Assembly: GCF_036507355.1 (NCBI RefSeq)
Contig: NZ_AP027877.1
Direction: 5' to 3' (one strand)
DNA from: Escherichia coli
GTDB taxonomy: Bacteria > Pseudomonadota > Gammaproteobacteria > Enterobacterales > Enterobacteriaceae
DNA length: 64,000 nucleotides
Shown here: positions 33,849-59,734 of the stretch, one piece after another
How positions within the stretch are numbered: position 1 is the first letter of the stretch
Layout of the letters: the number at the start of each line of letters is the position of its first letter
Notes under the pieces: generated by a model
Database searches by the model: none
What the model was told of the DNA's origin: nothing
What the model saw: the letters and a program-made list of their open reading frames with translations, nothing else
Position numbers and translations under genes: made by a program

Positions 33849-33888
33849 ATAGTAATGCCGGAGGCAAGTTTCCTCCGGCTTTATCATG

Positions 33889-34569
33889 TCACCCACTGTG
33901 GTATATGCGTTGCGGTCTGCCAACTTTGCCGTGAACAATTTCAGCAATAATCAGATGGCGGCTGGCGCAATATTCAAGATAACGCCTGGCAGTGGTGCGG
34001 CTGATGGTCAGTGCCTGCGCCACTGTTTCTGCCGTATGTTGCACACCCGGCTCTTTGAACAGTTTTCGCACCGCGTTTAGCGTCAAAGGGTCAATGCCGG
34101 TCGGCAGTTCGTCTTTGGGTTCACCGCGAGCATAGGCATTAAACATCTCATCAATTTGCTTCTGGCTGGCGCTATCAATACTTTCCAGCATATGTTTACG
34201 CTGGCGGAAACGGGTTAGCGTTTGCCCCAGCCGTTCATAGGCAATTGGCTTAATGAGATAATCAAATACACCACAACGTACGGCTTCAGACACCGTTTCC
34301 ATATCGCTGGCTGCAGTGGTAAACACCACGTCGCCGGGATAATGCGCCTGCACCAGTTCATGCAGTAAATTAATCCCTCTACCGTCAGGAAGATAGTTAT
34401 CGAGCAAGATTAGCCCCGGCTTAAAACGCTCGATCATCATTCGGGCCTGCGCCAGGTTTCCCGCCAGTAATATCTGACTGAATCCGGGAATGTGACGAAT
34501 ATATTCCGCATGCATCTCTGCCAGCGGCGTTTCGTCCTCAACGATCAATAGGGTTAATGGAGCTGTCAT
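33889..34569 (-). CDS. dpiA: two-component response regulator DpiA (CitB)
   Basis: 226 aa; receiver domain LTLLIVEDE; C-terminal HTH. Confidence 0.9.
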   Translation of the reverse strand: MTAPLTLLIVEDETPLAEMHAEYIRHIPGFSQILLAGNLAQARMMIERFKPGLILLDNYLPDGRGINLLHELVQAHYPGDVVFTTAASDMETVSEAVRCGVFDYLIKPIAYERLGQTLTRFRQRKHMLESIDSASQKQIDEMFNAYARGEPKDELPTGIDPLTLNAVRKLFKEPGVQHTAETVAQALTISRTTARRYLEYCASRHLIIAEIVHGKVGRPQRIYHSG

Positions 34570-36196: not shown

Positions 36197-36575
36197 TGTT
36201 TTCCTTGCGGGTTGTCCCGAGCCTCTTTGACGGATGTAATTAAAATGTTGAATCAAAATACATAGATATTAATTATAATCGTGGCAAATTTTATTCATTA
36301 AATCAATTAAATCACTTAAACCTGCGGGTCATTTCGTAATTACATTAATTAAAAAACTTAAAACCATTAAATAAATAAAAAACCACTAACTCTATGTGAA
36401 ATAAATCAAAATTTCACGCCAAAATACTCCTTAGGATGTATAGCGAAAGGAGAAAAAGATATACCTCGATCACCCCCCTTTCTCCCAAGTGAAAATAAAA
36501 GGTTATCAGTTTGCAACATTGAACAACATTCGTTGCAAATCGATAACAACATGCACCTTCAGGATACTATTTATT
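36197..36575. promoter_or_regulatory. AT-rich divergent dpiB/citC control region with short direct repeats
   Basis: taaatcaattaaatcacttaaacc and repeated ttaaa/taaat units between divergent starts. Confidence 0.4.
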
Positions 36576-37634
36576 ATGTTCGGCAATGATATTTTCACCC
36601 GCGTAAAACGTTCAGAAAATAAAAAAATGGCGGAAATCGCCCAATTCCTGCATGAAAATGATTTGAGCGTTGACACCACAGTCGAAGTATTTATTACCGT
36701 AACCCGCGATGAAAAGCTTATCGCGTGCGGTGGAATTGCCGGAAATATTATTAAATGCGTTGCTATCAGTGAATCCGTTCGCGGTGAAGGACTGGCGCTG
36801 ACATTAGCCACTGAACTGATAAACCTCGCCTATGAGCGGCACAGCACGCATCTGTTTATTTATACCAAAACCGAATACGAGGCGCTGTTCCGCCAGTGCG
36901 GTTTTTCCACGTTGACCAGCGTACCAGGCGTGATGGTGCTGATGGAAAACAGCGCCACGCGATTGAAACGCTATGCCGAATCGCTGAAAAAATTTCGTCA
37001 TCCAGGGAACAAGATTGGCTGCATTGTGATGAACGCCAATCCCTTTACGAAGGGTCACCGTTATCTGATTCAACAGGCTGCGGCACAGTGCGACTGGTTG
37101 CATCTGTTTTTAGTCAAAGAAGATTCTTCACGCTTCCCCTATGAAGACCGGCTGGATCTGGTGTTAAAAGGCACCGCCGATATTCCACGCCTGACTGTGC
37201 ATCGCGGCTCCGAATACATCATCTCCCGCGCTACGTTCCCTTGCTACTTCATTAAAGAACAGAGCGTCATTAACCATTGTTACACCGAAATTGATTTGAA
37301 GATTTTCCGTCAGTACCTCGCTCCCGCGCTGGGTGTAACTCACCGCTTTGTCGGTACTGAACCCTTTTGTCGCGTTACCGCCCAGTACAACCAGGATATG
37401 CGCTACTGGCTGGAAACGCCGACTATCTCCGCACCGCCCATCGAACTGGTTGAAATTGAGCGGCTGCGTTACCAGGAGATGCCGATATCCGCTTCCCGGG
37501 TACGTCAACTGCTGGCGAAAAACGATCTCACGGCTATCGCGCCGCTGGTCCCTGCAGTCACGCTGCATTATTTGCAGAACCTGCTTGAGCACTCCCGCCA
37601 GGACGCGGCAGCTCGTCAAAAGACCCCCGCATGA
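36576..37634 (+). CDS. citC: [citrate (pro-3S)-lyase] ligase
   Basis: ORF 36489..37634 trimmed to ATG at 36576 (MFGNDIFTRVK); 352 aa. Confidence 0.9.
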   Translation: MFGNDIFTRVKRSENKKMAEIAQFLHENDLSVDTTVEVFITVTRDEKLIACGGIAGNIIKCVAISESVRGEGLALTLATELINLAYERHSTHLFIYTKTEYEALFRQCGFSTLTSVPGVMVLMENSATRLKRYAESLKKFRHPGNKIGCIVMNANPFTKGHRYLIQQAAAQCDWLHLFLVKEDSSRFPYEDRLDLVLKGTADIPRLTVHRGSEYIISRATFPCYFIKEQSVINHCYTEIDLKIFRQYLAPALGVTHRFVGTEPFCRVTAQYNQDMRYWLETPTISAPPIELVEIERLRYQEMPISASRVRQLLAKNDLTAIAPLVPAVTLHYLQNLLEHSRQDAAARQKTPA

Positions 37635-37648
37635 GAAACAGGTGAAAA

Positions 37649-37945
37649 ATGAAAATAAACCAGCCCGCCGTTGCAGGCACCCTTGAGTCTGGGGATGTGA
37701 TGATACGCATCGCCCCACTCGATACGCAGGATATCGACCTGCAAATCAATAGCAGCGTTGAGAAACAGTTTGGCGATGCAATTCGCACCACCATTCTGGA
37801 CGTTCTCGCCCGCTACAACGTGCGCGGCGTACAGCTGAATGTCGATGACAAAGGCGCACTGGACTGCATTTTACGTGCACGACTGGAAGCCCTGCTGGCA
37901 CGCGCCAGCGGTATCCCGGCTCTGCCATGGGAGGATTGCCAATGA
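37649..37945 (+). CDS. citD: citrate lyase acyl carrier protein (gamma subunit)
   Basis: 98 aa [26 protein letters not shown]. Confidence 0.9.
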
Positions 37946-38850
37946 TTTCCGCTTCGCTGCAACAACGTAAAACTCGCACCCGCCGCAGCATGTTGTTTGT
38001 GCCTGGTGCCAATGCCGCGATGGTCAGCAACTCCTTCATCTACCCGGCTGATGCCCTGATGTTTGACCTCGAAGACTCCGTGGCATTACGTGAAAAAGAC
38101 ACCGCCCGCCGCATGGTTTATCACGCGCTGCAACATCCGCTGTATCGTGATATTGAAACCATTGTGCGTGTCAACGCGCTGGATTCCGAATGGGGTGTTA
38201 ACGACCTTGAAGCCGTCGTTCGCGGTGGTGCGGACGTTGTGCGTCTGCCGAAAACCGATACCGCTCAGGATGTTCTGGATATTGAAAAAGAGATCCTGCG
38301 TATCGAAAAAGCCTGTGGTCGTGAACCCGGCAGCACCGGCCTGCTGGCAGCGATTGAATCTCCGCTGGGCATTACCCGCGCAGTGGAAATCGCTCACGCT
38401 TCCGAGCGTTTGATCGGTATCGCCCTCGGTGCAGAAGACTATGTGCGCAACCTGCGTACAGAACGCTCCCCGGAAGGAACTGAACTGCTGTTCGCACGCT
38501 GTTCCATTTTGCAGGCCGCGCGCTCTGCGGGTATTCAGGCGTTCGATACCGTCTATTCCGACGCTAACAACGAAGCCGGATTCCTGCAAGAAGCCGCCCA
38601 CATCAAACAGCTGGGCTTTGACGGCAAATCGCTGATCAACCCGCGTCAGATTGATCTGCTGCACAACCTCTACGCACCGACCCAGAAAGAAGTGGATCAC
38701 GCCCGCCGCGTCGTAGAAGCCGCTGAAGCCGCCGCTCGCGAAGGCCTCGGCGTGGTTTCCCTGAACGGCAAGATGGTGGACGGTCCGGTTATCGATCGCG
38801 CCCGTCTGGTGCTCTCCCGTGCAGAACTTTCCGGCATCCGCGAAGAATAA
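37942..38850 (+). CDS. citE: citrate lyase beta subunit (citryl-ACP lyase)
   Basis: ORF 37927..38850 trimmed to [10 protein letters not shown]; 302 aa; overlaps citD stop. Confidence 0.9.
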
Positions 38851-38860
38851 GGCAATCAAA

Positions 38861-40393
38861 ATGACGCAGAAAATTGAACAATCTCAACGACAAGAACGGG
38901 TAGCGGCCTGGAATCGTCGCGCTGAATGCGATCTTGCCGCTTTCCAGAACTCGCCAAAGCAAACCTACCAGGCTGAAAAAGCGCGCGATCGCAAACTGTG
39001 CGCCAACCTGGAAGAAGCGATTCGTCGCTCTGGTTTACAGGACGGCATGACGGTTTCCTTCCATCACGCTTTCCGTGGCGGTGACCTGACCGTCAATATG
39101 GTGATGGACGTCATCGCGAAGATGGGCTTTAAAAACCTGACCCTGGCGTCCAGCTCCCTGAGTGATTGCCATGCGCCGCTGGTAGAACACATTCGCCAGG
39201 GCGTGGTTACCCGCATTTATACCTCCGGCCTGCGTGGTCCACTGGCGGAAGAGATCTCCCGTGGTCTGCTGGCAGAACCGGTGCAGATCCACTCTCACGG
39301 CGGTCGTGTGCATCTGGTACAGAGCGGCGAACTGAATATCGACGTGGCTTTCCTCGGCGTCCCGTCCTGTGATGAATTCGGTAATGCCAACGGCTACACC
39401 GGTAAAGCCTGCTGCGGCTCCCTCGGCTATGCAATGGTTGATGCCGACAACGCAAAACAGGTCGTGATGCTTACCGAAGAACTGCTGCCTTATCCGCATA
39501 ATCCGGCAAGCATTGAACAAGATCAGGTTGATCTGATCGTCAAAGTTGATCGCGTTGGCGATGCTGCAAAAATCGGCGCTGGTGCGACCCGTATGACCAC
39601 TAACCCGCGCGAACTGCTTATTGCCCGTAGCGCTGCGGATGTGATTGTCAACTCTGGCTACTTCAAAGAAGGTTTCTCTATGCAAACCGGTACCGGTGGC
39701 GCATCGCTGGCGGTAACCCGTTTCCTGGAAGACAAAATGCGTAGCCGCGATATTCGCGCCGACTTCGCCCTCGGCGGTATTACCGCGACGATGGTTGATC
39801 TGCACGAAAAAGGTCTAATCCGCAAACTGCTGGATGTGCAGAGCTTTGACAGCCACGCTGCGCAATCGCTGGCCCGTAACCCCAATCACATCGAAATCAG
39901 CGCCAACCAGTACGCTAACTGGGGTTCGAAAGGTGCATCAGTTGATCGTCTCGACGTGGTGGTACTGAGCGCGCTGGAAATTGACACCCAGTTCAACGTT
40001 AACGTGCTGACCGGCTCTGACGGCGTACTGCGTGGTGCTTCCGGTGGTCACTGCGATACCGCGATTGCCTCTGCGCTTTCCATCATCGTCGCGCCGCTGG
40101 TACGCGGTCGTATTCCGACTCTGGTGGATAACGTGCTGACCTGCATCACCCCAGGCTCCAGTGTCGATATTCTGGTCACAGACCACGGTATCGCAGTTAA
40201 CCCGGCACGTCCGGAACTGGCAGAACGTCTGCAGGAAGCGGGCATTAAAGTGGTTTCCATTGAGTGGCTGCGCGAACGCGCGCGTCTGCTGACCGGTGAA
40301 CCACAGCCGATTGAATTCACCGACCGCGTCGTTGCCGTTGTGCGTTACCGCGATGGCTCGGTGATCGATGTTGTGCATCAGGTGAAGGAATAA
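38861..40393 (+). CDS. citF: citrate lyase alpha subunit (citrate CoA-transferase)
   Basis: ORF 38819..40393 trimmed to MTQKIEQSQRQ; 510 aa. Confidence 0.9.
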   Translation: MTQKIEQSQRQERVAAWNRRAECDLAAFQNSPKQTYQAEKARDRKLCANLEEAIRRSGLQDGMTVSFHHAFRGGDLTVNMVMDVIAKMGFKNLTLASSSLSDCHAPLVEHIRQGVVTRIYTSGLRGPLAEEISRGLLAEPVQIHSHGGRVHLVQSGELNIDVAFLGVPSCDEFGNANGYTGKACCGSLGYAMVDADNAKQVVMLTEELLPYPHNPASIEQDQVDLIVKVDRVGDAAKIGAGATRMTTNPRELLIARSAADVIVNSGYFKEGFSMQTGTGGASLAVTRFLEDKMRSRDIRADFALGGITATMVDLHEKGLIRKLLDVQSFDSHAAQSLARNPNHIEISANQYANWGSKGASVDRLDVVVLSALEIDTQFNVNVLTGSDGVLRGASGGHCDTAIASALSIIVAPLVRGRIPTLVDNVLTCITPGSSVDILVTDHGIAVNPARPELAERLQEAGIKVVSIEWLRERARLLTGEPQPIEFTDRVVAVVRYRDGSVIDVVHQVKE

Positions 40394-40396
40394 GCC

Positions 40397-41801
<1,405 letters not shown>

Positions 41802-41851
41802 TTATTTAAGCACTTGATAAATTTTGAAATATTAATTTTCGGAGAACCCGT

Positions 41852-43315
41852 ATGTCTTTAGCAAAAGATAATATATGGAAACTATTGGCCCCACTGGTGG
41901 TGATGGGCGTCATGTTCCTTATCCCTGTCCCCGACGGTATGCCGCCGCAGGCATGGCATTACTTCGCTGTGTTTGTGGCAATGATTGTCGGCATGATCCT
42001 CGAGCCAATTCCGGCAACAGCGATCAGTTTTATTGCGGTTACTATTTGCGTTATTGGCAGTAATTACCTGCTCTTTGATGCCAAAGAATTAGCTGACCCA
42101 GCGTTTAATGCGCAAAAACAGGCGCTGAAATGGGGTCTGGCTGGTTTTGCCAGCACCACGGTATGGCTGGTATTTGGCGCATTTATTTTTGCATTAGGGT
42201 ATGAAGTTTCCGGGTTAGGTCGTCGCATTGCCCTTTTCCTGGTGAAATTCATGGGCAAACGCACGCTGACGTTGGGTTATGCGATTGTCATTATCGACAT
42301 TCTGCTGGCACCGTTTACACCGTCCAACACCGCGCGTACCGGGGGTACGGTTTTTCCGGTCATTAAAAACCTGCCGCCGTTGTTTAAATCATTCCCGAAC
42401 GATCCGTCCGCGCGTCGTATTGGCGGCTATTTGATGTGGATGATGGTCATTAGTACCAGTCTGAGTTCGTCCATGTTTGTCACCGGTGCGGCACCAAACG
42501 TGCTGGGTCTGGAGTTCGTCAGCAAAATTGCCGGTATCCAGATTAGCTGGTTGCAGTGGTTCCTCTGCTTCCTGCCGGTTGGGGTTATCTTGCTTATCAT
42601 TGCGCCGTGGCTTTCCTACGTGCTGTACAAACCGGAAATCACACACAGTGAAGAAGTGGCAACCTGGGCGGGTGATGAACTGAAAACCATGGGTGCGCTG
42701 ACACGCAGAGAGTGGACACTGATTGGCCTTGTATTGCTCAGCTTAGGTTTGTGGGTATTTGGCAGTGAAGTCATTAATGCTACTGCGGTTGGTCTGCTGG
42801 CAGTTTCGCTAATGCTGGCCCTGCACGTTGTGCCGTGGAAAGACATTACCCGCTATAACAGCGCATGGAACACGCTGGTCAACCTGGCAACTCTGGTTGT
42901 GATGGCTAACGGCCTGACTCGTTCTGGTTTTATTGACTGGTTCGCCGGTACCATGAGTACGCACCTGGAAGGATTCTCACCAAACGCAACGGTGATTGTA
43001 CTGGTTCTGGTGTTCTACTTTGCACACTACCTGTTTGCCAGCCTGTCTGCGCACACCGCAACCATGCTGCCGGTTATTCTGGCCGTCGGTAAAGGTATTC
43101 CGGGCGTACCAATGGAACAACTGTGTATCCTGCTGGTGCTGTCTATCGGTATCATGGGCTGTCTGACGCCGTATGCAACCGGTCCTGGGGTGATTATTTA
43201 CGGCTGTGGCTATGTGAAATCAAAAGATTACTGGCGTCTTGGCGCAATCTTCGGGGTGATTTACATCTCTATGTTGCTGTTGGTTGGCTGGCCGATTCTC
43301 GCCATGTGGAACTAA
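41852..43315 (+). CDS. citT: citrate:succinate antiporter (DASS family)
   Basis: 487 aa polytopic membrane protein. Confidence 0.9.
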   Translation: MSLAKDNIWKLLAPLVVMGVMFLIPVPDGMPPQAWHYFAVFVAMIVGMILEPIPATAISFIAVTICVIGSNYLLFDAKELADPAFNAQKQALKWGLAGFASTTVWLVFGAFIFALGYEVSGLGRRIALFLVKFMGKRTLTLGYAIVIIDILLAPFTPSNTARTGGTVFPVIKNLPPLFKSFPNDPSARRIGGYLMWMMVISTSLSSSMFVTGAAPNVLGLEFVSKIAGIQISWLQWFLCFLPVGVILLIIAPWLSYVLYKPEITHSEEVATWAGDELKTMGALTRREWTLIGLVLLSLGLWVFGSEVINATAVGLLAVSLMLALHVVPWKDITRYNSAWNTLVNLATLVVMANGLTRSGFIDWFAGTMSTHLEGFSPNATVIVLVLVFYFAHYLFASLSAHTATMLPVILAVGKGIPGVPMEQLCILLVLSIGIMGCLTPYATGPGVIIYGCGYVKSKDYWRLGAIFGVIYISMLLLVGWPILAMWN

Positions 43316-43344
43316 TACGTTCGCCAAACGCTGAATAAATCATC

Positions 43345-43381
43345 ACGCCCGCCAGGTAAGCCCACCTGGCGGGCTTTTTTA
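43345..43381 (+). terminator. rho-independent terminator after citT
   Basis: cgcccgccaggtaagcccacctggcgggc followed by tttttt. Confidence 0.75.
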
Positions 43382-43428
43382 TGATTTAATAGATAGTATT
43401 CAGTGTATGTATGAGTTCCACACCCATT

Positions 43429-44235
43429 ATGAAAGCATTCTGGCGTAACGCCGCGTTGCTCGCGGTTTCTCTGCTTCCCTTCTCTTCTGCCAACGCCGTA
43501 GCGTTGCAGGCAAAACAGTATGGCGATTTTGATCGCTATGTCCTGGCCCTCTCCTGGCAAACCGGATTTTGCCAGAGTCAACACGATCGAAATCGTAACG
43601 AACGAGATGAATGTCGCCTGCAAACCGAAACGACCAACAAAGCTGATTTTCTGACCGTACATGGTCTGTGGCCAGGATTGCCTAAATCGGTCGCTGCCCG
43701 TGGTGTTGATGAACGCCGCTGGATGCGCTTCGGTTGCGCTACTCGCCCAATCCCGAATCTACCAGAAGCGCGCGCCAGCCGGATGTGTTCATCGCCGGAA
43801 ACCGGATTATCACTGGAAACGGCCGCTAAACTAAGTGAAGTCATGCCAGGAGCTGGCGGACGTTCCTGCCTGGAACGCTACGAATATGCCAAACACGGTG
43901 CCTGCTTTGGTTTTGATCCGGACGCATACTTCGGTACGATGGTACGCCTGAATCAAGAAATTAAAGAGAGCGAAGCCGGAAAATTCCTTGCGGATAATTA
44001 CGGTAAAACAGTGAGCCGCCGTGACTTTGACGCCGCCTTTGCCAAAAGCTGGGGAAAAGAGAACGTGAAAGCAGTTAAGCTAACGTGCCAGGGTAACCCT
44101 GCGTATTTGACTGAAATGCAGATCTCGATCAAAGCTGACGCCATCAACGCTCCGCTTTCTGCCAACTCATTCTTGCCACAACCACACCCAGGCAACTGTG
44201 GCAAAACCTTTGTGATTGATAAAGCGGGTTATTAA
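43429..44235 (+). CDS. rna: periplasmic ribonuclease I (RNase T2 family)
   Basis: ORF 43411..44235 trimmed to MKAFWRNAALLAVSLLPFSSANA signal peptide; 268 aa. Confidence 0.9.
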   Translation: MKAFWRNAALLAVSLLPFSSANAVALQAKQYGDFDRYVLALSWQTGFCQSQHDRNRNERDECRLQTETTNKADFLTVHGLWPGLPKSVAARGVDERRWMRFGCATRPIPNLPEARASRMCSSPETGLSLETAAKLSEVMPGAGGRSCLERYEYAKHGACFGFDPDAYFGTMVRLNQEIKESEAGKFLADNYGKTVSRRDFDAAFAKSWGKENVKAVKLTCQGNPAYLTEMQISIKADAINAPLSANSFLPQPHPGNCGKTFVIDKAGY

Positions 44236-44383
44236 TCATCTGATTTACAAAACACGCTAATTTGTCTTCCATAAACCAAGGCGATTAAGATTTATACATA
44301 ATGCGCTGCATTGAGGAATTCCCTGAATGTGACGCAAATCACTTCAAAGAGTGAGCAACAGTCAGTATCATCATGTGAGTTAA

Positions 44384-44417
44384 ACCCTCGCCGCCTGACG
44401 GTGAGGGTTTTCTTTTG
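44384..44417 (+). terminator. hairpin in rna-rnk intergenic region
   Basis: aaccctcgccgcctgacggtgagggttttcttttg. Confidence 0.4.
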
Positions 44418-44464
44418 GGTATGTTTATCTGCGACACTCGCAGTACCGACGACATGGAGTAAAA

Positions 44465-44875
44465 ATGTCCAGACCAACTATCATCATTAACGACCTGGAT
44501 GCCGAACGCATCGATATTCTGCTGGAGCAACCCGCCTATGCTGGTTTGCCAATCGCCGACGCGTTAAACGCAGAGTTGGATCGCGCCCAAATGTGTTCGC
44601 CAGAAGAGATGCCACACGACGTGGTGACAATGAACAGCCGGGTTAAATTCCGCAATCTTAGCGATGGCGAAGTGCGTGTGCGCACGTTGGTGTATCCGGC
44701 AAAAATGACCGATAGCAATACTCAGCTTTCCGTTATGGCTCCGGTAGGTGCCGCACTGCTGGGGCTGCGCGTTGGCGATTCCATTCACTGGGAACTTCCG
44801 GGCGGCGTTGCAACCCACCTTGAAGTGCTGGAACTCGAATACCAGCCAGAAGCTGCTGGCGACTATCTGCTTTAA
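44465..44875 (+). CDS. rnk: regulator of nucleoside diphosphate kinase (GreA/GreB-like)
   Basis: 136 aa [23 protein letters not shown]. Confidence 0.88.
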
Positions 44876-45012
44876 TCCCATCTGCACAAGCGATAACTCG
44901 CTTTGCCCAGAGGATGCACTCGCATCCTCTTTACGCAAAATCAGCAATTTTTCCTGGTTCTCACTGTTCACTTTTGCTGCAAAATTATTCCGTTTCGTTT
45001 GTGGGAATAACC

Positions 45013-45102
45013 ATGGCAGAAGCATTTTACATCCTGATAGGATTTCTGATTATGGCGGCGATTATCGTCATGGCTGTCCTTTACCTCGAAAACCACTCCT
45101 GA
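45013..45102 (+). CDS. candidate 29-aa hydrophobic small protein (MAEAFYILIGFLIMAAIIVMAVLYLENHS)
   Basis: Internal ATG of ORF 44914..45102 preceded by gggaataacc; single predicted TM helix; unverified. Confidence 0.3.
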   Translation: MAEAFYILIGFLIMAAIIVMAVLYLENHS

Positions 45103-45105
45103 CGA

Positions 45106-46344
45106 TCATATTGTTCCCCCCGGCATCGCATTCACCAGACCTGAAACCGCCTTCTGCGCCGCCTCTGCGCTTTGTGCACCGGGTACCAGAATCACCTTAC
45201 GGCACTCCTCTTCACGTTTTTCGAAAATCTCATATCCCCGGGCGGCCTCTTCAAACGGCATATAGTGGGTAACAATTTCTTCTGGTTTCAGTAATCCTTT
45301 CTCAATTAACGGTAATAATTCTCCCAGCCATGCGTGAACGTGGGTCTGTCCCATTTTAAACGTCAACCCTTTATCAAAGGCGTCGCCAAACAGGAAACCG
45401 TGAATAAATCCAGCGTAGACGCCCGGTACGCTAACAATGCCGCCACGCCTGACCGCCGCAATACACTGACGCAACGCTTTACCGCTGCTGCCCTCCAGTT
45501 TCAGGTTAGTCAGCACCGTTTCCGTGGTGCTGCCTTTCGCTTCAAAACCGACGGCGTCTATTACTGCATCCACGCCCCGGTGACCTGCCGTTTGTTCAAT
45601 AATTGACTGTGCCGGATCGCTATCTTCATCGAAATTAATCGGGATCGCGCCGTAGCGGTCAGCGGCGAAACGCAAGCGGTAGGGATGATGATCAACAACA
45701 AAAATCTGTTCCGCACCGAGCAACCGTGCACAGGCGATTGTCAACAATCCCACAGGACCAGCACCATAGACAGCAACGCTTGAACTTTGTTGGATCTGCG
45801 CATTTTTTGCTGCCTGCCATGCCGTTGGCAGAATATCAGAAAGGAAAAGGGCTTTATCATCTGAAAGCAAAGGCGGTACTTTAAACGGCCCCACATTCCC
45901 TTTAGGGACGCGGACATATTCCGCCTGCCCACCAGGAACGCCACCATACAGGTGACTATAACCAAACAATGCCGCGGGAGCTGGTATCTGTTTTTTATTG
46001 AGCGCAGCGCCTTTACCCGCATTGGTATTTTCGCAGGCGGCATATTACTGCATTCGACAGAAAAAACAGTCGCCACAAGCAATGACAAACGGAATTACCA
46101 CCCGGTCGCCTTTTTGCAAATTTTTTACGTCCTTTCCGGTTTCAACTACTTCCCCCATAAATTCATGACCAAAAATATCGCCATGTTTAACCTGGGGTAT
46201 TTTGCCTCGATAAAGATGGAGGTCAGAGCCACAGATCGCCGTTGCCGTAATACGCAGAATAATATCATCTGCCTGTTCAACGCCCGGATCGGGAACATTT
46301 TCTACCTGAACGTTATATGGGCCGTGATAAGTCAATGCTTTCAT
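45106..46344 (-). pseudogene. ybdR: Zn-dependent alcohol dehydrogenase-like oxidoreductase interrupted by an in-frame TAA at codon 100
   Basis: N-terminal ORF 46045..46344 (99 aa, ends ...[10 protein letters not shown]) and C-terminal ORF 45106..45969 are in the same frame; region between them translates without further stops ([32 protein letters not shown]); total 1239 bp. Confidence 0.8.
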
Positions 46345-46564
46345 GCAACCTCCAGAGACAGTTCAAAAAAGAGTCAGTCTTTAAGGGTAGCAATCACAGC
46401 GGGAAAACGGGCGGTACCACAGGTTTTGGGAGAATTCCTGGTGTTCAGTGAGAATATATTCATCACAGAAACAGTTCGTAAGGAAAAAGAACCAGACAAA
46501 TATCAGGGATAAATATTATAATCATGGCGAATGATTTGTTCATGATTAACAGGGAGAAAGGGTT

Positions 46565-46993
46565 ATGTATAAGACAATCATTATGCCAGTTGATGTATTT
46601 GAAATGGAATTGAGCGACAAAGCTGTTCGCCACGCTGAATTCCTCGCCCAGGATGACGGAGTTATTCATCTACTTCACGTACTACCCGGGTCAGCCAGCC
46701 TGAGCCTGCACCGTTTTGCCGCTGATGTGCGTCGTTTTGAAGAGCATCTGCAACATGAAGCAGAAGAACGTCTGCAAACGATGGTCAGCCACTTCACCAT
46801 CGATCCTTCCCGCATTAAACAACATGTCCGTTTTGGTAGCGTGCGGGATGAAGTCAATGAGTTGGCAGAAGAACTGGGGGCTGATGTTGTAGTTATTGGT
46901 TCTCGCAACCCATCGATTTCGACCCATCTGTTAGGTTCTAACGCCTCGAGCGTGATCCGCCACGCCAATCTGCCTGTACTGGTCGTTCGCTAA
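46565..46993 (+). CDS. uspG: universal stress protein G
   Basis: 142 aa ORF; Usp-family C-terminal region VVIGSRNP...LGSNASSV. Confidence 0.9.
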
Positions 46994-47010
46994 CAGATAA
47001 AAGTATTTAT

Positions 47011-47046
47011 GCCGCCCTGCCTGGAACATCCCGGCAGGGCTTTTTA
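47011..47046 (+). terminator. rho-independent terminator after uspG
   Basis: gccctgcctggaacatcccggcagggc followed by ttttt. Confidence 0.65.
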
Positions 47047-47049
47047 ATG

Positions 47050-47084
47050 CCATAAAAAAGCCGCCAGGTTTGACCCCGGCGGCT
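47050..47084 (-). terminator. terminator after ahpF (minus strand)
   Basis: aaaaaagccgccaggtttgaccccggcggct: stem-loop with U-run on the minus strand. Confidence 0.55.
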
Positions 47085-47113
47085 AAGCAATTGCAGGTGA
47101 ATCTTACTTCTTC

Positions 47114-48679
47114 TTATGCAGTTTTGGTGCGAATCAGGTAGTCAAAAGCACTCAGAGAGGCTTTGGCACCTTCGCCAGTGGCGATGATGATCTGCTTGTA
47201 CGGAACCGTCGTACAGTCACCCGCTGCGAACACGCCTTTCACGTTGGTTTCGCATTTCGCATCAATGATAATCTCGCCCATGCGGTTACGTTCGACTGCG
47301 CCTTCCAGCCAGTTGGTGTTCGGCAGCAGACCAATCTGGACGAAAATACCGGCCAGTTCGATGTTGTGAATATCGCCGCTGACACGATCTCGATATTCCA
47401 GACCAACGACTTTGCTGCCGTCGCCTTTCACTTCCGTGGTTTGCGCATTCAGAATAATGTCGACGTTTTTCAGGCTGCGCAGTTTGTCCTGCAGCACCTG
47501 GTCGGCTTTCATTTCTGGCGCAAATTCCAGCAGAGTTACGTGCTCAACGATACCCGCCAGGTCGATTGCCGCTTCCACGCCGGAGTTACCGCCGCCGATA
47601 ACCGCTACGCGTTTGCCTTTAAACAGCGGGCCGTCGCAGTGCGGGCAGTAGGTCACGCCTTTGGTGCGATACTGATCTTCGCCCGGAACGTTCATGTTGC
47701 GCCATTTTGCACCGGTCGCCACGATAATGCTGCGTGCTTTCAGTACCGCGCCAGAAGCTGTTTCAATCTGGTGCAGACCACCTTCAACCGCTGCCGGGAT
47801 TAGTTTGGTGGCGCTCTGGCTGTCGATCACATCAACGTCGTATTCATCAACGTGAACTTTCAGCGCACCTGCCAGTTTCTGGCCTTCGGTCTTCGGTACA
47901 GAAATGTAGTTTTCGATATCAACGGTATCGAGGATCTGACCACCAAAACGTTCGCCCATCAGACCGGTACGGATGCCTTTACGTGCGGAGTAAATTGCTG
48001 CCGCTGCACCCGCCGGGCCGGAACCAACGATTAATACGTCATAAGCATCACGCTTGTTCAGCTCTTCTGCCGCACGTTTTTCCGCGCCAGTATCAATTTT
48101 GGCAACGATTTCAGTCAACGTCATGCGGCCCTGACCAAACTCTTTCCCGTTTACGAACACTGCCGGAACGCCCATCACGTTGCGATCGGTGATTTCGTTC
48201 TGGAAGGTGCCGCCGTCAATTGCAGTATGCTTGATGCGCGGGTTGAGTACGCTCATCAGGTTCAGCGCCTGCACCACGTCCGGGCAGTTGTGGCAAGAGA
48301 GCGAGTAATAGGTTTCGAATTCAAAATCACCGTCAATATGGCGAATCTGCTCCAGCAGAGACTGCGCTTCTTTCGACGGATGACCACCGGTCCACAGCAA
48401 CGCCAGTACCAGCGAGGTGAACTCGTGGCCCAGCGGGGAGCCTGCAAAACGTGGCCCCTGGTTGGAACCTGGGTTGGTGATCAGGAAAGACGGCTTACGC
48501 ACCGGCAAGCTGTTATCTTCTTTAAAGGTGACTTTGTCTGACAGTTCTGCGATTTCAGCCAACAGTTCCTTGATTTCTGCCGATTTAGCGCTGTCATCCA
48601 GCGTGGCAATTAACTCAACAGGCTTGGTCAATTTCTCAAGGTAAGCCTTGAGTTGAGTTTTCATATTTGTGTCGAGCAT
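47114..48679 (-). CDS. ahpF: alkyl hydroperoxide reductase subunit F
   Basis: ORF 47114..48709 trimmed to [13 protein letters not shown]; two CxxC redox centres (CHNC, CPHC); FAD/NAD Rossmann motifs; 521 aa. Confidence 0.95.
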
Positions 48680-48756
48680 GTTTATCTCCTGGGCTTTAAA
48701 CATCATCATGCAAGCGGCCTCTGCGGCTACCTGGATGCAGCTTGCATCATGGTGCG

Positions 48757-48788
48757 GGGAAGAAAATCGGGTGCCGCAGCACCCGATT
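48757..48788 (-). terminator. hairpin between ahpC and ahpF (partial terminator/attenuator)
   Basis: aatcgggtgccgcagcacccgatt palindrome followed on the minus strand by a U-run. Confidence 0.5.
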
Positions 48789-48807
48789 AATTACGCGATT
48801 GCGGAAC

Positions 48808-49371
48808 TTAGATTTTACCAACCAGGTCCAGAGACGGAGCCAGAGTTGCTTCACCTTCTTTCCATTTAGCCGGGCAAACTTCACCTGGGTGAGAAGCTAC
48901 GTACTGTGCTGCTTTGATTTTACGCAGCAGGTCAGACGCGTCACGGCCAATGCCTTCAGCGGTAACTTCGATTGCCTGGATGATACCCTGCGGGTCAACA
49001 ACGAAGGTCGCACGGTCAGCCAGACCTTCATCTTCACGCATGTTGTCGAAGTTACGGGTCAGGGCGCCAGTCGGGTCGCCGATCATCGCATATTTGATTT
49101 TAGCGATGGTTTCAGAGCTGCTGTGCCATGCTTTGTGGGTGAAGTGAGTATCGGTAGATACTGCGTATACGTCTACGCCCAGTTTCTGCAGTTCTTCGTA
49201 GTGGTCAGCAACGTCACCCAGTTCGGTCGGGCATACGAAAGTAAAGTCAGCCGGGTAGAAGAAGAAGACGCTCCAGCGGCCTTCGGTATCTTTTTCGGTG
49301 ATTTCGATGAATTCGCCGTTTTTGAATGCCTGGTTTTTAAAAGGTTTAATTTTGGTGTTAATCAAGGACAT
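48808..49371 (-). CDS. ahpC: alkyl hydroperoxide reductase subunit C (peroxiredoxin)
   Basis: 187 aa; peroxidatic Cys context FTFVCPTE. Confidence 0.95.
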
Positions 49372-49742
49372 CTATACTTCCTCCGTGTTTTCGATGAGAT
49401 GTAAGGTAACCAATTTTTGCCGATTCGGCTAATGCGTTTCCATTATCAAATCGATAAGTTTTACCTTACAACCTTCGTAAGACAACTTTGTGAACTTTGC
49501 ACCGCCAGCGGCGATAAAAAGTAAAATGGCCCCCTTTCCAGGTGACCGTGTAATCTGAACTACCCTTTGGTATCTTCAGCGCCTGCCTGCAGGCAGAGGT
49601 GTTGCCCTTACAAATGCAACAACGACATGGATTACAACACCCTCATAAACAAAGGGCAATCACCTGATCTAAGCTCTTACCTATGACAGTGATAGGTTAT
49701 GCCTTTTACTCGACTTTTGCACTGACTGAAAAGGACAAATTA

Positions 49743-50489
49743 ATGTTAAAAAAGATACTTTTACTGGCTCTGCTTCCTGCAATCGCCTTCGCAGAGGAAC
49801 TTCCTGCTCCAGTAAAAGCGATTGAAAAACAGGGTATTACGATCATCAAAACGTTCGATGCCCCCGGAGGAATGAAAGGTTATCTCGGAAAGTATCAGGA
49901 TATGGGCGTCACCATCTACCTGACTCCAGATGGTAAGCACGCTATCTCTGGTTACATGTACAACGAGAAAGGTGAAAACCTGAGTAACACACTTATCGAA
50001 AAAGAAATTTACGCACCAGCCGGACGCGAAATGTGGCAACGGATGGAACAATCCCACTGGCTCCTCGACGGTAAAAAAGACGCGCCGGTCATTGTCTACG
50101 TCTTCGCCGATCCGTTCTGCCCATATTGTAAACAGTTCTGGCAGCAGGCGCGCCCGTGGGTAGATTCTGGCAAAGTACAGTTGAGAACATTGTTGGTTGG
50201 GGTTATCAAACCAGAAAGTCCGGCGACAGCCGCGGCAATTCTTGCCTCCAAAGATCCCGCAAAAACCTGGCAAGAATATGAAGCCTCTGGTGGCAAGCTT
50301 AAGCTAAACGTGCCTGCAAACGTAAGTACAGAGCAAATGAAAGTGTTAAGCGACAACGAGAAACTCATGGACGATCTGGGGGCAAATGTCACTCCGGCTA
50401 TCTATTACATGAGTAAGGAAAATACGCTGCAACAGGCCGTGGGGTTGCCCGATCAGAAAACGCTTAATATCATTATGGGAAATAAATAA
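49743..50489 (+). CDS. dsbG: periplasmic disulfide isomerase/reductase DsbG
   Basis: ORF 49683..50489 trimmed to [17 protein letters not shown] signal peptide; thioredoxin-like CPYC; 248 aa. Confidence 0.9.
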
Positions 50490-50697
50490 AAGGTAATTCA
50501 TGGATGGTTGAACTATATCCCTGCTTTTCAACCATCCTAAAAAAGCATGAATTGCTCGCTCTGCCCTAAGTGGCTGTGCTATTTTAGAAAAACTTAATCC
50601 TGAGTTAAGCAAAAAAACATAATCAATAAAAATATATACGCAAAAAACATTGATTAAGTGAATATATCATGGAAGAAAAATATAACCGGAGTAGTGT

Positions 50698-51600
50698 ATG
50701 ACCAATCTCTACGACTTGAAAAAGTTCGACTTAAATCTTCTTGTCATATTTGAGTGTATTTACCAGCATTTAAGCATTAGCAAAGCTGCTGAATCACTAT
50801 ATATCACCCCATCAGCCGTGAGCCAGTCGTTACAACGCTTACGTGCGCAATTTAATGACCCTTTATTCATTCGCTCAGGAAAAGGTATCGCGCCGACGAC
50901 AACAGGGTTAAATCTGCATCACCATCTTGAGAAAAATCTCAGAGGCCTTGAACAAACAATTAATATAGTCAATAAGTCCGAACTAAAGAAAAACTTTATT
51001 ATTCACGGCCCTCAGCTCATTTCTTGCTCTAATAATAGTATGCTGATCCGCTGCCTACGGCAAGATTCCTCTGTCGAGATTGAGTGCCATGATATCCTCA
51101 TGTCAGCAGAGAATGCTGAAGAACTGTTGGTTCACCGCAAAGCCGATCTGGTGATCACCCAAATGCCAGTGATCAGCCGTTCCGTCATTTGCATGCCATT
51201 GCATACGATTCGCAATACTCTAATTTGTAGTAATAGGCATCCACGAATTACTGACAATAGCACTTATGAACAAATTATGGCAGAAGAGTTCACCCAATTA
51301 ATATCTAAATCAGCAGGGGTTGATGATATTCAAATGGAAATAGACGAGAGATTTATGAATCGCAAAATTTCATTTCGTGGTTCCTCTTTGCTGACAATCA
51401 TTAATAGCATTGCAGTTACAGATTTACTGGGAATAGTCCCCTATGAACTTTATAACTCCCACCGTGACTTTCTTAATTTAAAAGAGATAAAACTAGAACA
51501 TCCGTTACCTTCAATAAAGCTTTACATTTCCTATAATAAATCTTCTTTAAACAATCTGGTGTTCTCCCGATTTATTGACCGTCTAAATGAGTGTTTTTGA
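50698..51600 (+). CDS. ybdO: LysR-family transcriptional regulator
   Basis: 300 aa; N-terminal HTH; AT-rich gene and upstream region. Confidence 0.85.
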   Translation: MTNLYDLKKFDLNLLVIFECIYQHLSISKAAESLYITPSAVSQSLQRLRAQFNDPLFIRSGKGIAPTTTGLNLHHHLEKNLRGLEQTINIVNKSELKKNFIIHGPQLISCSNNSMLIRCLRQDSSVEIECHDILMSAENAEELLVHRKADLVITQMPVISRSVICMPLHTIRNTLICSNRHPRITDNSTYEQIMAEEFTQLISKSAGVDDIQMEIDERFMNRKISFRGSSLLTIINSIAVTDLLGIVPYELYNSHRDFLNLKEIKLEHPLPSIKLYISYNKSSLNNLVFSRFIDRLNECF

Positions 51601-51746
51601 TATATAACTTCAGACAGCTACTATAACTTTCACCTATTTATTCACAGCGCGAATGAAAAATAAAACACTCTGCTTTTCAGTGTTTACTTTATAATTAACA
51701 GTCTTATCTCACTGATCACCCTGTAACGTTCAGAGAGCGTCTTCAG

Positions 51747-52967
51747 ATGTCTATTTATAAAATTCCTCTTCCGCTCAATATTCTGGAAGCTGCACGAGAG
51801 CGTATTACCTGGACACTCAACACCCTACCCCGCGTTTGTGTCTCATTTTCTGGCGGCAAAGACTCTGGTTTAATGCTGCATCTGACAGCCGAACTTGCCC
51901 GACAAATGGGCAAAAAAATCTGCGTTTTGTTTATCGACTGGGAGGCGCAATTCTCTTGCACCATTAACTATGTTCAGTCCCTGCGCGAGTTGTACACCGA
52001 TGTCATCGAAGAGTTTTACTGGGTTGCGCTCCCGCTTACGACGCAAAATTCCCTTTCACAATACCAACCCGAATGGCAGTGCTGGGAACCTGATGTCGAA
52101 TGGGTGCGTCAGCCCCCGCAAGATGCGATAACCGATCCTGACTTTTTCTGCTTTTACCAGCCAGGCATGACCTTCGAACAATTTGTACGTGAGTTTGCCG
52201 AATGGTTTTCACAAAAACGTCCGGCGGCGATGATGATCGGCATCCGTGCGGATGAGTCCTACAACCGTTTTGTCGCCATCGCCAGTTTAAATAAACAACG
52301 TTTTGCCGACGATAAACCCTGGACTACGGCCGCACCAGGCGGTCATAGCTGGTACATTTACCCCATTTACGACTGGAAAGTGGCTGATATCTGGACCTGG
52401 TATGCAAATCATCAAAGTCTCTGCAACCCACTGTATAACCTAATGTATCAGGCAGGCGTTCCTCTGCGTCATATGCGAATTTGCGAACCTTTTGGCCCGG
52501 AGCAACGACAAGGATTATGGCTCTATCACGTTATCGAACCGGATCGCTGGGCTGCTATGTGCGCACGAGTCAGCGGGGTAAAAAGTGGCGGCATTTACGC
52601 CGGACATGACAATCATTTCTATGGGCATCGGAAAATCCTCAAGCCAGAACATTTAGACTGGCAAGAATATGCATTATTGCTGCTCAATAGCATGCCAGAA
52701 AAAACAGCTGAGCATTACCGCAATAAAATCGCCATTTATTTGCACTGGTATCAGAAAAAAGGCATCGAGGTTCCACAAACCCAGCAAGGGGACATTGGCG
52801 CGAAAGATATCCCTTCCTGGCGGCGGATATGCAAAGTTTTACTCAATAACGATTACTGGTGTCGGGCATTATCATTTAGTCCTACGAAAGCGAAGAACTA
52901 TCAGCGTTATAACGAACGGATAAAAGGAAAACGTCAGGAATGGGGGATACTATGCAACAACGATTAA
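51747..52967 (+). CDS. ybdN: PAPS-reductase-like PP-loop ATP pyrophosphatase family protein
   Basis: 406 aa; PP-loop motif SFSGGKDS near N-terminus. Confidence 0.85.
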   Translation: MSIYKIPLPLNILEAARERITWTLNTLPRVCVSFSGGKDSGLMLHLTAELARQMGKKICVLFIDWEAQFSCTINYVQSLRELYTDVIEEFYWVALPLTTQNSLSQYQPEWQCWEPDVEWVRQPPQDAITDPDFFCFYQPGMTFEQFVREFAEWFSQKRPAAMMIGIRADESYNRFVAIASLNKQRFADDKPWTTAAPGGHSWYIYPIYDWKVADIWTWYANHQSLCNPLYNLMYQAGVPLRHMRICEPFGPEQRQGLWLYHVIEPDRWAAMCARVSGVKSGGIYAGHDNHFYGHRKILKPEHLDWQEYALLLLNSMPEKTAEHYRNKIAIYLHWYQKKGIEVPQTQQGDIGAKDIPSWRRICKVLLNNDYWCRALSFSPTKAKNYQRYNERIKGKRQEWGILCNND

Positions 52968-53569
52968 CGCAGGATTTAACGCAATTTCTCGCCAGCTTGC
53001 CGGAAGATGATCGCATCAACGCGATTAATGAAATCCGCATGGCGATCCATCAGGTTAGCCCCTTTCGTGAAGAGCCAGTGGATTGCGTTCTGTGGGTTAA
53101 AAACAGCCAACTTATGCCTAATGATTACAACCCAAACAACGTGGCACCACCCGAAAAAAAACTGCTGAAAAAATCCATTGAAATAGATGGTTTTACCCAA
53201 CCCATTGTGGTCACGCATACGGATAAAAATGCCCTGGAAATCGTGGATGGTTTTCACCGCCATGAAATTGGTAAAGGCTCATCATTATTACAATTACGCT
53301 TAAAAGGTTATTTGCCGGTGACCTGTCTGGAAGGTACGCGTAATCAACGCATCGCCGCGACTATTCGTCATAATCGCGCTCGTGGACGCCATCAAATCAC
53401 CGCCATGTCGGAAATCGTCCGTGAACTTAGCCAGTTGGGATGGGACGATAATAAAATTGGCAAAGAGCTGGGAATGGACAGCGACGAAGTGCTGCGCCTG
53501 AAGCAAATTAACGGCCTGCAAGAGTTGTTTGCCGACCGTCAATATTCCCGCGCCTGGACGGTTAAATAG
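52940..53569 (+). CDS. ybdM: ParB/sulfiredoxin-like domain protein
   Basis: 209 aa; DGFHRH motif; overlaps ybdN 3' end by 28 nt. Confidence 0.8.
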   Translation: MGDTMQQRLTQDLTQFLASLPEDDRINAINEIRMAIHQVSPFREEPVDCVLWVKNSQLMPNDYNPNNVAPPEKKLLKKSIEIDGFTQPIVVTHTDKNALEIVDGFHRHEIGKGSSLLQLRLKGYLPVTCLEGTRNQRIAATIRHNRARGRHQITAMSEIVRELSQLGWDDNKIGKELGMDSDEVLRLKQINGLQELFADRQYSRAWTVK

Positions 53570-54730
53570 CTAAAGCTGGCGCAGGCGTTCAGCTGCTGCC
53601 AGCAACGTCGATTCCTTCTTGGCAAAACAGAGACGAATCAGTTTATGAGGGAAGGGATCGGCGCAAAACACCGATAGCGGAATCGCCGCTACGCCGTGCT
53701 CCTGCGTCAGCCACTGGCAAAACTCAACATCATCCAGGGTAGATACGGCGCTGTAATCCACCAGCAAAAAGTATGTACCTTCACACGGTAAAATCTCCAG
53801 CCGGCTTTCATTTAAAGCATTCACCAGAATATCGCGCTTCTGGCGATAAAAGTCCGGTAACGCAAGATAATGCTCAGGTTCTGCACATAGCATATCAGCA
53901 AGCGCCAGCTGTGCCGGGGTATTCACCGAAAAGGTCAGATACTGATGTACCTTGCGAATTTCGGCACTGATGGGCGCTGGCGCAACGCAATAACCCACTT
54001 TCCAGCCGGTCATATGATAGGTCTTGCCAAACGATGACACCGCCACTGCCCGCTCACGCAGCTGCGGATGTGCCAGCACGCTGGCATGGCCCTGCTGTGA
54101 AAAGTTGATGTGCTCGTAGACTTCATCGCTAATGACAAAAATCTCGTGCCCGGCAATCGCCTGCCACAAAGCGGCGAAATCAGCCTGCTGCCAGACAGTA
54201 GCGCTGGGGTTATGCGGTGTGTTGAGGATCACCAGTCGGGTACGATCGCTTAACAAAGCGGCAAACTCCTGCCAGTCCACGCGAAAATACGGCGGTTGCA
54301 GCGCAATACGTTTCACTATCCCCCCAGAAAGCACGATGGCAGGGGCGTAACTGTCATAGCTGGGATCAAAACAAATCACTTCGTCGCCATTGCGCACCAA
54401 TGCGGTTATCGCTGCGTATAACGCCTCCGTCGCCCCTGCCGTCACGGTGATATCGCTGTCGGCATCCGGTTGATAGCCATACAGACGTTCCGTTTTCTGA
54501 GCAATCGCCTCGCGCAATGCCTGCACGCCGGTCATGGGCGCGTATTGGTTTGCCCCCTGGGCAACGTGGTACGCCAGCCGCTCCTGTAAATAGCGCGGAC
54601 CATCAAAATCAGGAAAGCCTTGCGAAAGGTTAATCGCCTGGTGTTGCTGCGCCAGCGCGCTCATCTGGGTGAAAATAGTGGTGCCAAGTTGTGGAAGTTT
54701 GCTTTGTGGAATCAGAGGGTTATTTGTCAT
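53570..54730 (-). CDS. ybdL: PLP-dependent aminotransferase (methionine-oxo-acid transaminase)
   Basis: 386 aa; aminotransferase class I fold with SFGKT lysine motif. Confidence 0.9.
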   Translation of the reverse strand: MTNNPLIPQSKLPQLGTTIFTQMSALAQQHQAINLSQGFPDFDGPRYLQERLAYHVAQGANQYAPMTGVQALREAIAQKTERLYGYQPDADSDITVTAGATEALYAAITALVRNGDEVICFDPSYDSYAPAIVLSGGIVKRIALQPPYFRVDWQEFAALLSDRTRLVILNTPHNPSATVWQQADFAALWQAIAGHEIFVISDEVYEHINFSQQGHASVLAHPQLRERAVAVSSFGKTYHMTGWKVGYCVAPAPISAEIRKVHQYLTFSVNTPAQLALADMLCAEPEHYLALPDFYRQKRDILVNALNESRLEILPCEGTYFLLVDYSAVSTLDDVEFCQWLTQEHGVAAIPLSVFCADPFPHKLIRLCFAKKESTLLAAAERLRQL

Positions 54731-54838
54731 TTTTATTGTGCCTGACGAAGTTGTGTGTTGAAGGCACTATAACACGATGCTAGTATTTGGCAATCAAGAC
54801 GTTTAGATGTCTAAATAAAACAACAAGGACAACACAAC

Positions 54839-55927
54839 ATGCCTCACAATCCTATCCGCGTGGTCGTCGGCCCGGCTAACTACTTTTCACATCCAGGAAG
54901 TTTCAATCACCTGCACGATTTTTTCACTGATGAACAACTTTCTCGCGCGGTGTGGATCTACGGCGAACGCGCCATTGCTGCGGCGCAAACCAAACTTCCG
55001 CCAGCGTTTGGACTTCCAGGGGCAAAGCATATTTTGTTTCGTGGTCATTGCAGCGAAAGCGATGTACAGCAACTGGCGGCTGAGTCCGATGACGATCGCA
55101 GCGTGGTGATTGGCGTCGGCGGCGGCGCACTACTCGACACCGCGAAAGCCCTCGCCCGCCGTCTCGGTCTGCCATTTGTTGCCGCTCCAACGATCGCCGC
55201 CACCTGCGCCGCCTGGACACCGCTCTCCGTCTGGTATAACGATGCCGGACAGGCGCTGCATTATGAGATTTTCGACGACGCCAATTTTATGGTGCTGGTG
55301 GAACCAGAGATTATCCTCAATGCGCCGCAACAATATCTGCTGGCGGGGATCGGTGACACGCTGGCGAAATGGTATGAAGCGGTGGTGCTGGCTCCGCAAC
55401 CAGAAACGTTGCCGCTAACCGTGCGACTGGGGATCAATAATGCGCAGGCCATTCGCGACGTCTTGTTAAACAGTAGCGAACAGGCGCTGAGCGATCAGCA
55501 AAATCAACAGTTAACGCAATCATTTTGCGATGTGGTGGATGCTATTATTGCTGGTGGTGGGATGGTCGGTGGTCTGGGCGATCGTTTTACGCGTGTGGCG
55601 GCGGCTCATGCCGTGCATAACGGTCTGACCGTGCTGCCGCAAACCGAGAAGTTTCTTCACGGCACCAAAGTCGCCTACGGAATTCTGGTGCAAAGCGCCT
55701 TGCTGGGTCAGGATGATGTTCTGGCGCAATTAACTGGAGCGTATCAGCGTTTTCATCTGCCGACTACGCTGGCGGAGCTGGAAGTGGATATCAATAATCA
55801 GGCGGAGATCGACAAAGTGATTGCCCACACCTTGCGCCCGGTGGAGTCCATTCATTACCTGCCAGTCACGCTGACACCAGATACGTTGCGTGCAGCGTTC
55901 GAAAAAGTGGAATCGTTTAAAGCCTGA
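54839..55927 (+). CDS. ybdH: iron-containing alcohol/hydroxycarboxylate dehydrogenase (glycerol dehydrogenase-like)
   Basis: 362 aa; GVGGGALLDTAKA nucleotide-binding motif. Confidence 0.88.
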   Translation: MPHNPIRVVVGPANYFSHPGSFNHLHDFFTDEQLSRAVWIYGERAIAAAQTKLPPAFGLPGAKHILFRGHCSESDVQQLAAESDDDRSVVIGVGGGALLDTAKALARRLGLPFVAAPTIAATCAAWTPLSVWYNDAGQALHYEIFDDANFMVLVEPEIILNAPQQYLLAGIGDTLAKWYEAVVLAPQPETLPLTVRLGINNAQAIRDVLLNSSEQALSDQQNQQLTQSFCDVVDAIIAGGGMVGGLGDRFTRVAAAHAVHNGLTVLPQTEKFLHGTKVAYGILVQSALLGQDDVLAQLTGAYQRFHLPTTLAELEVDINNQAEIDKVIAHTLRPVESIHYLPVTLTPDTLRAAFEKVESFKA

Positions 55928-55936
55928 CGTGCAAAT

Positions 55937-56134
55937 TTAGCAGCAGCGCGCGCCGCCTTTTCCACCGTAGCGCGCGTCCTGCCGCTCACGGAAAAACTCT
56001 TCGTAGGTCATCGGCGTTTGATCGGGATGGTTAACCCGCATATGTTCGACATAGTTGTCGTAATCAGGCATACCAATCATCAGTTTCGCCGCCTGACCTA
56101 AATATTTTCCGGCTTTTGCCAGTGAATCAAACAT
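55937..56134 (-). CDS. ybdD: DUF466 small protein downstream of cstA
   Basis: 65 aa [33 protein letters not shown]. Confidence 0.85.
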
Positions 56135-56286
56135 CAATACCTCCGGTAAACAGGTTGCTGAGAGAGTGCATTAATAGCTATCAACGCGCTCGGTCAGTCC
56201 CCTCGCCCCATCGAGGAGAGGGTTAGGGTGAGGGGGAACCCTCGGCACTATGCCAACATTCGCCAACATCCCCCCTCACTCTGACT

Positions 56287-58392: not shown

Positions 58393-58572
58393 AGTTGTTA
58401 TCCGTGTGCGTGTCCATAGAGATGTTACATTTTGTTTCTATAACATCTTTGCGCAATTTAACAACACAGCAACCATGTAAATCGGAGTTGAAACCAATAT
58501 TTAACTTAACAATGTTAACTCGATCACTCCGTTAACCGAGTTTTCCTGCAATCTCATATAATTCTGTCGGGT

Positions 58573-59734
<1,162 letters not shown>

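Follow-up and report, generated by a model that had tools for sequence, protein, structure and literature searches.

Our results indicate, with a probability of roughly 0.93, that the ybdR gene in a 64,000-nucleotide stretch of Escherichia coli DNA (contig NZ_AP027877.1; hereafter the window) is an inherited loss-of-function allele, segregating in natural populations of the species as an ordinary nonsense pseudogene. The mutation itself, its occurrence in further genomes, and the pattern of substitutions on the affected alleles were observed directly. RefSeq already annotates this exact allele as an internal-stop pseudogene, and it does not depart from an ordinary nonsense pseudogene.

The gene lies on the minus strand (46344..45106; 1239 bp, 413 codons) and is colinear with ybdR (b0608) of E. 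coli K-12 MG1655. All 1239 of 1239 bases aligned to b0608 without gaps, with 18 substitutions and no indel (98.5% nucleotide identity). Translation of 45106-46344 revealed one internal stop, an in-frame ochre TAA at codon 100 (46047..46045), with the normal stop at codon 413. The codon is CAA (Gln100) in K-12, and the change to TAA is a C-to-T transition on the gene strand at window position 46047; a T follows the stop (TAAT). The mechanical open reading frames at the locus are one of 99 aa (46045..46344) and one of 287 aa that begins at a TTG (45106..45969). Downstream of the TAA, 312 codons are free of stops in the same frame, for which the chance in random sequence is, by arithmetic, roughly (61/64)^312, or about 3e-7. 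A preliminary description of the window had proposed that ybdR is split into a 99-codon and a 287-aa piece over 1239 bp by a single in-frame ochre codon, the frame being otherwise intact. Translation bore out every detail of this proposal. The further claim that the lesion is a point nonsense change and not an indel was upheld by the gap-free K-12 alignment.

The naming of the gene was likewise sound, as its neighbors are those of K-12 ybdR: uspG, ahpF, and ahpC lie to one side of it, with yldA, rnk, rna, and citT to the other. The order uspG-ybdR-yldA-rnk is identical in the window and in K-12, placing the gene in the orthologous position. The 220-bp divergent intergenic region between uspG and ybdR (46345..46564), which includes the ybdR ribosome-binding site GGAGG, is nearly unchanged, with one difference from K-12 and one from strain 33F4. 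On the other side, yldA (45013..45102, plus strand) is an intact gene for a 29-aa small membrane protein; it is convergent with ybdR and ends 3 bp from it. Its translation, MAEAFYILIGFLIMAAIIVMAVLYLENHS, agrees with the published YldA (PMC6001520). The yldA frame is open further upstream in both the window and 33F4, forming a 62-aa ORF (44914..45102, plus strand), and this longer ORF is the yldA product that PGAP annotates in 33F4.

By translation, Pfam matches, K-12 alignment, and its RefSeq label ("pseudo, internal stop"), the locus at 45106..46344 (minus strand) belongs to the zinc-dependent medium-chain alcohol dehydrogenase family. The 99-aa fragment matches Pfam ADH_N (PF08240; E = 2.8e-21, residues 25-97), while the 287-aa downstream ORF, which is encoded but follows the stop, matches ADH_zinc_N (PF00107; E = 1.1e-12). 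The nearest solved relative of YbdR is an alcohol dehydrogenase from Thermus sp. ATN1 (PDB 4CPD; E = 3.9e-73); next come formaldehyde dismutase and the glutathione-independent formaldehyde dehydrogenases (2DPH, 4JLW, 1KOL). Alignment to 4CPD located the catalytic zinc ligands Cys38 and His60 and the structural-zinc cysteines 90, 93, 96, and 104, all of which are present in the conceptual translation. The family features other than length are thus found at the locus; the full-length frame is interrupted by the TAA at codon 100. We therefore class the locus, on sequence grounds, as a pseudogene of the medium-chain zinc-dependent dehydrogenase family and not as a functional member.

To what enzyme the intact gene corresponds is a separate matter. 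All NCBIfam equivalog models scored YbdR far below their cut-offs, and no substrate or specific function can therefore be assigned to it. The model for FdhA, the glutathione-independent formaldehyde dehydrogenase (TIGR02819), gave 192.2 bits against an equivalog cut-off of 636.95 and was rejected. YbdR should not, as judged by these scores, be called a formaldehyde dehydrogenase.

The position of the stop suggests what the mutation would do. The structural-zinc motif has the form Cys90-x2-Cys93-x2-Cys96-x7-Cys104, and the TAA falls between its third and fourth cysteines. Thus, the C-to-T transition from Gln100 (CAA) to TAA would end translation after 99 residues, within the structural-zinc lobe of the catalytic domain. 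The part that is still translatable (46048..46344, minus strand; deposited as BED23343.1) encodes a partial GroES-like ADH_N domain with Cys38, His60, Cys90, Cys93, and Cys96 but without Cys104, as seen from PF08240 and the 4CPD alignment. The part expected to go untranslated (45106..46044, minus strand) comprises codons 101-412 and the normal stop and includes Cys104, all of the Rossmann NAD(P)-binding domain (PF00107), and the C-terminal portion of the catalytic domain. A 99-residue product should have no dehydrogenase activity, since the Rossmann cofactor-binding domain would be missing altogether, along with the fourth zinc ligand and the C-terminal half of the catalytic domain. Family knowledge of zinc-dependent medium-chain dehydrogenases likewise leads us to infer that the fragment is inactive.

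The preliminary description had left room for a sequencing error, in which case the strain would really carry an intact ybdR, and a single-base substitution is the type of change that such an error could give. However, the exact 61-mer centered on the TAA was found in 13 of 5426 complete RefSeq E. coli genomes, with near-identical 61-mers without the TAA in 3555 genomes of the same set. A 14th carrier, Res13-Sevr-PER07-33, was missed by the exact 61-mer due to an additional change 11 bases upstream that results in C96S. Identical TAA codons are therefore found in 14 independently sequenced and assembled complete genomes (0.26% of 5426), and codon 100 was CAA in all 11 of the 11 intact alleles sampled; the TAA version is absent from about 99.6% of ybdR-bearing genomes. 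The three best ybdR matches among the 5426 genomes (33F4, XJ34, and TR01) all contain the same TAA. In addition, 99-aa products occur on hundreds of contigs, with a sister 99-aa fragment that has the same ...CRMQ end on 555 public contigs. The window also contains 28T and 559A, which are linked variants specific to carriers. In the Logan assembly of the public run ERR3330519, which belongs to the window's own lineage, 6299 of 6300 bases around the gene are identical to the window and the TAA is present; this single mismatch in 6.3 kb makes the assembly close to read-level support. As the same dead allele is present in at least 14 other strains, it is an inherited pseudogene and not a sequencing error, and we give the latter next to no chance.

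The carriers are diverse in origin. They come from four continents (Turkey, Switzerland, China, Uruguay, Ecuador/Galapagos, and Canada) and from cattle, calf, beef, chicken, pig, frog, fresh water, and human stool. PGAP labels the gene "pseudo, internal stop" in every carrier that we fetched. TR01 is the sole genome labeled O157:H7 with the TAA, while the typical O157:H7 strain Vac_07.1 has a different, intact allele. Many of the protein accessions of TR01 over the 40-kb region are unique to it, suggesting an atypical strain or a noisier assembly. One replacement in the window ybdR, H11N (A at position 31), is otherwise found only in the ERR3330519 assembly, and an exact 40-mer containing it had no matches in GTDB representative genomes. 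Among the complete RefSeq E. coli genomes, the best match to the window over 24 kb is 99.1%, which places the source genome outside this set.

We compared the substitutions on TAA alleles with those on intact alleles. Changes were counted as private if seen only on TAA alleles when judged against a set of 11 intact alleles spanning the identity range, with one mis-flagged site in codon 98 corrected by hand for the intact set. The TAA alleles had 12 private replacement and 5 private silent changes, while polymorphism among the 11 intact alleles comprised 7 replacement and 29 silent changes, a signal of purifying selection. The difference was significant by Fisher test (p = 5e-4) and also without TR01 (p = 2.5e-3), although the sample is small, with 17 and 36 events. 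TR01 was dropped in the second test because of its many private protein alleles, which may reflect a lower-quality assembly. The replacements on TAA alleles are H10Y, H11N, Y45F, C96S, S161A, G187S, G232S, P307L, P345L, E365K, M407I, and G410R. Their fraction among the private changes (0.71) falls within the neutral expectation for the ybdR sequence (0.70-0.77). C96S, found in Res13-Sevr-PER07-33 (L026:1001-2239), removes a structural-zinc cysteine four codons before the stop and is a clear sign of decay following inactivation. Thus, a sense codon has been replaced, the lesion is heritable, and purifying selection is relaxed (in a small sample), as for a nonsense pseudogene. The TAA alleles thus show neutral decay, which points to ybdR being a true null.

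These data bear on whether the gene could still work, either because ochre suppression or read-through yields full-length YbdR or because separate N- and C-terminal pieces assemble. The frame downstream of the stop is open, and gene prediction reports the 287-aa ORF as a protein, both of which would be compatible with residual function. However, the near-neutral replacement-to-silent ratio, which differs from that of the intact alleles, and the loss of Cys96 argue against efficient suppression or read-through. In E. coli, few stop signals terminate translation more efficiently than UAAU (TAA with a T after it), and no tRNA gene is present within the 64-kb window. As for separate pieces, the break would divide the catalytic domain within its structural-zinc lobe. 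The first in-frame start-like codon after the stop, and the start of the 287-aa ORF, is a TTG at codon 126 that has no Shine-Dalgarno motif; no in-frame start codon with a good Shine-Dalgarno motif occurs after the stop before codon 384. We consider continued function very improbable. Programmed recoding (selenocysteine, pyrrolysine, or conserved read-through) was also rejected, as the codon is UAA and not UGA or UAG, and is not conserved in orthologs, and as an Rfam scan placed no element within ybdR.

Two other lesions are present in the window. At 31715..32482 is a 768-bp IS1 element with InsA and InsB ORFs and 23-nt terminal inverted repeats, lying between a pagP remnant (31224..31714, minus strand) and a dcuC remnant (from 32483, plus strand). 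The 678 bp that IS1 replaces, which are found in other strains, extend from pagP codons 1-24 (the signal peptide) through all 588 bp of the dcuC-pagP intergenic region to roughly codon 6 of dcuC. Both genes are left without a start codon and promoter, and the loss looks like an IS1-associated deletion. The second lesion is in ybeF (26962..27915, plus strand), which encodes a LysR-type regulator. This gene has an in-frame TAA at codon 6 (26977..26979), where translation of the 33F4 gene gives Gln; the next in-frame start is a GTG at 27115, within the helix-turn-helix region. A 61-mer containing the ybeF TAA had no exact match in the 5426 complete E. coli genomes, and the ochre mutation looks private to the lineage of the window. 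Rfam matches above the gathering threshold were the sRNA sroC (1494..1656, plus strand), a cspA-type thermoregulator 5′ UTR upstream of cspE (30792..31234, minus strand), the rnk leader (44311..44419, plus strand), and STnc70 (49516..49609, minus strand). All four are expected for this region of E. coli.

How old is the ybdR stop? The preliminary description had suggested a recent inactivation, and this holds in part. We found no further stops or indels in 10 alleles from complete-genome carriers (including Res13), in the window, or in the ERR3330519 assembly, and the upstream region is nearly unchanged. In terms of decay, the pseudogene appears young, with its degeneration barely begun. However, the allele is common to lineages whose flanks are 1-2% apart, exists as two sub-haplotypes, and has accumulated neutral-looking replacements, and so is much older than this strain. 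Over a 38-kb aligned flank, carriers differ pairwise by 350-576 sites (about 1-1.5%), with the exception of one clone in China and Ecuador whose members are 0-4 sites apart. The window differs from the other carriers at 685-798 sites (about 2%) over the same flank. This divergence means that the carriers are not one recent clone.

The strongest form of a recent date, an inactivation that is private to this strain or clone, would account for the lack of a second stop or indel and for the unchanged-looking upstream region and Shine-Dalgarno sequence. The window also contains two lesions that may be strain-level, the private ybeF stop and the IS1-associated deletion. Nonetheless, the flank distances among the carriers and between carriers and the window, the two sub-haplotypes with their carrier-private markers, and the 12 replacements accumulated across lineages all point the other way, and we find a private origin hard to credit.

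The haplotypes instead favor an older, shared origin. TAA alleles fall into two groups, one marked by 28T (H10Y) and the other by 6G, 63T, 210G, 366C, and 481G. Across all genomes surveyed, the closest non-carrier has 3 mismatches per 500 bases to group 1 and 7 per 500 to group 2, and lacks the markers. In the simplest reading, the stop came first and the markers later. We also sought an intact allele of the group 2 haplotype, which would have been a sign of recurrent mutation or short-tract recombination; the sole near match, Res13-Sevr-PER07-33, proved to be another TAA carrier. The most economical history would be a single old origin with subsequent divergence and a degree of recombination. 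That CAA changed to TAA repeatedly, on two haplotypes, is less likely.

Comparison of the flanks is consistent with exchange at the locus. Across 26017..64000, divergence between the window and the carriers is mosaic, reaching 2-3.5% over ent, cstA, ybdH, and ybdL (about 54000-62000) and about 2% over ahpF and uspG (46381-48379). The 2-kb bin containing ybdR has just 3 differences (0.15%) between the window and 33F4. This mosaic suggests recombination breakpoints near ybdR. In a model with a single old origin, one ancestor acquired the null allele and passed it on by descent; homologous recombination probably carried it further, into a range of lineages associated with livestock, water, and humans, where it would then drift neutrally as a pseudogene. 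Our guess at the age of the TAA allele is thousands of years or more.

Loss of ybdR is not limited to the TAA allele. About 1826 of 5422 genomes (about 34%) lack the gene, with uspG and rnk separated by 1195 bp rather than the 2529 bp found in the window (44465..46993). One example is the APEC O2:K1:H4 strain E12053, in which yldA directly follows uspG. An 82-aa, frameshift-like variant of ybdR is present on 14 contigs. The CenAsiaIII lineage of Shigella sonnei is reported to have acquired a stop codon in ybdR, termed reductive evolution (PMC6811581). A gene named ybdR has also been studied in Salmonella (PMC7913699). Together, these losses indicate that ybdR is dispensable in E. coli and Shigella, and its repeated loss fits weak selection.

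Loss of YbdR might instead be selected for, with the null spreading because enzyme inactivation, or an early end to its transcription or translation near the convergent yldA-rnk genes, is beneficial in some niches. The recurrence of loss (the one-third of genomes without the gene, the S. sonnei stop, the 82-aa variant, and the TAA on diverse backgrounds) would be expected under such selection, and PMC12288877 lists ybdR and yldA as a pair forming a convergent excludon. However, a dispensable, weakly selected gene would also show repeated loss, carriers make up just 0.26% of complete genomes, no phenotype is known, and the intact alleles are still under purifying selection (7 replacement to 29 silent). 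We therefore regard selected loss as unlikely. The broader version, in which the TAA allele, the absence of the gene, and the S. sonnei stop are all selected losses, spread by recombination and advantageous in some animal-associated niches, is slightly less likely again.

With ybdR in the window read as an inherited nonsense pseudogene, the two "hypothetical proteins" deposited from it, BED23343.1 (VEE46_31110, the exact 99-aa product) and BED23342.1 (VEE46_31100), are the two parts of a single dead ybdR gene, and one pseudogene feature should replace both. Beyond correct annotation the relevance is slight. The case adds evidence that ybdR is dispensable in E. coli and Shigella, and it offers a small, clean illustration of telling a real nonsense allele from a sequencing error without reads, through other genomes and a check for neutral evolution.

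Several known systems can be set beside the window allele. The solved enzymes 4CPD, 2DPH, 4JLW, and 1KOL have a fold family in common with YbdR, and their catalytic Cys and His and C-x2-C-x2-C-x7-C structural-zinc motif align with it, but they are distant homologs. The intact K-12 ybdR (NP_415141.1, a putative zinc-dependent alcohol dehydrogenase) has CAA at codon 100 and encodes a full 412-aa protein, whereas the window has TAA. In the S. sonnei CenAsiaIII lineage, ybdR is likewise inactivated by a nonsense mutation, a likeness at the level of the gene; that stop arose in a different organism and is dated to after 1996 (PMC6811581). The ybdR pseudogenes of 33F4 (AC0BJ3_RS04430), XJ34 (KFZ60_RS16400), and 873.10 (IEC99_RS16975) contain the same CAA-to-TAA change at codon 100 as the window, and that of 33F4 differs from it at 2 of 1239 bases.
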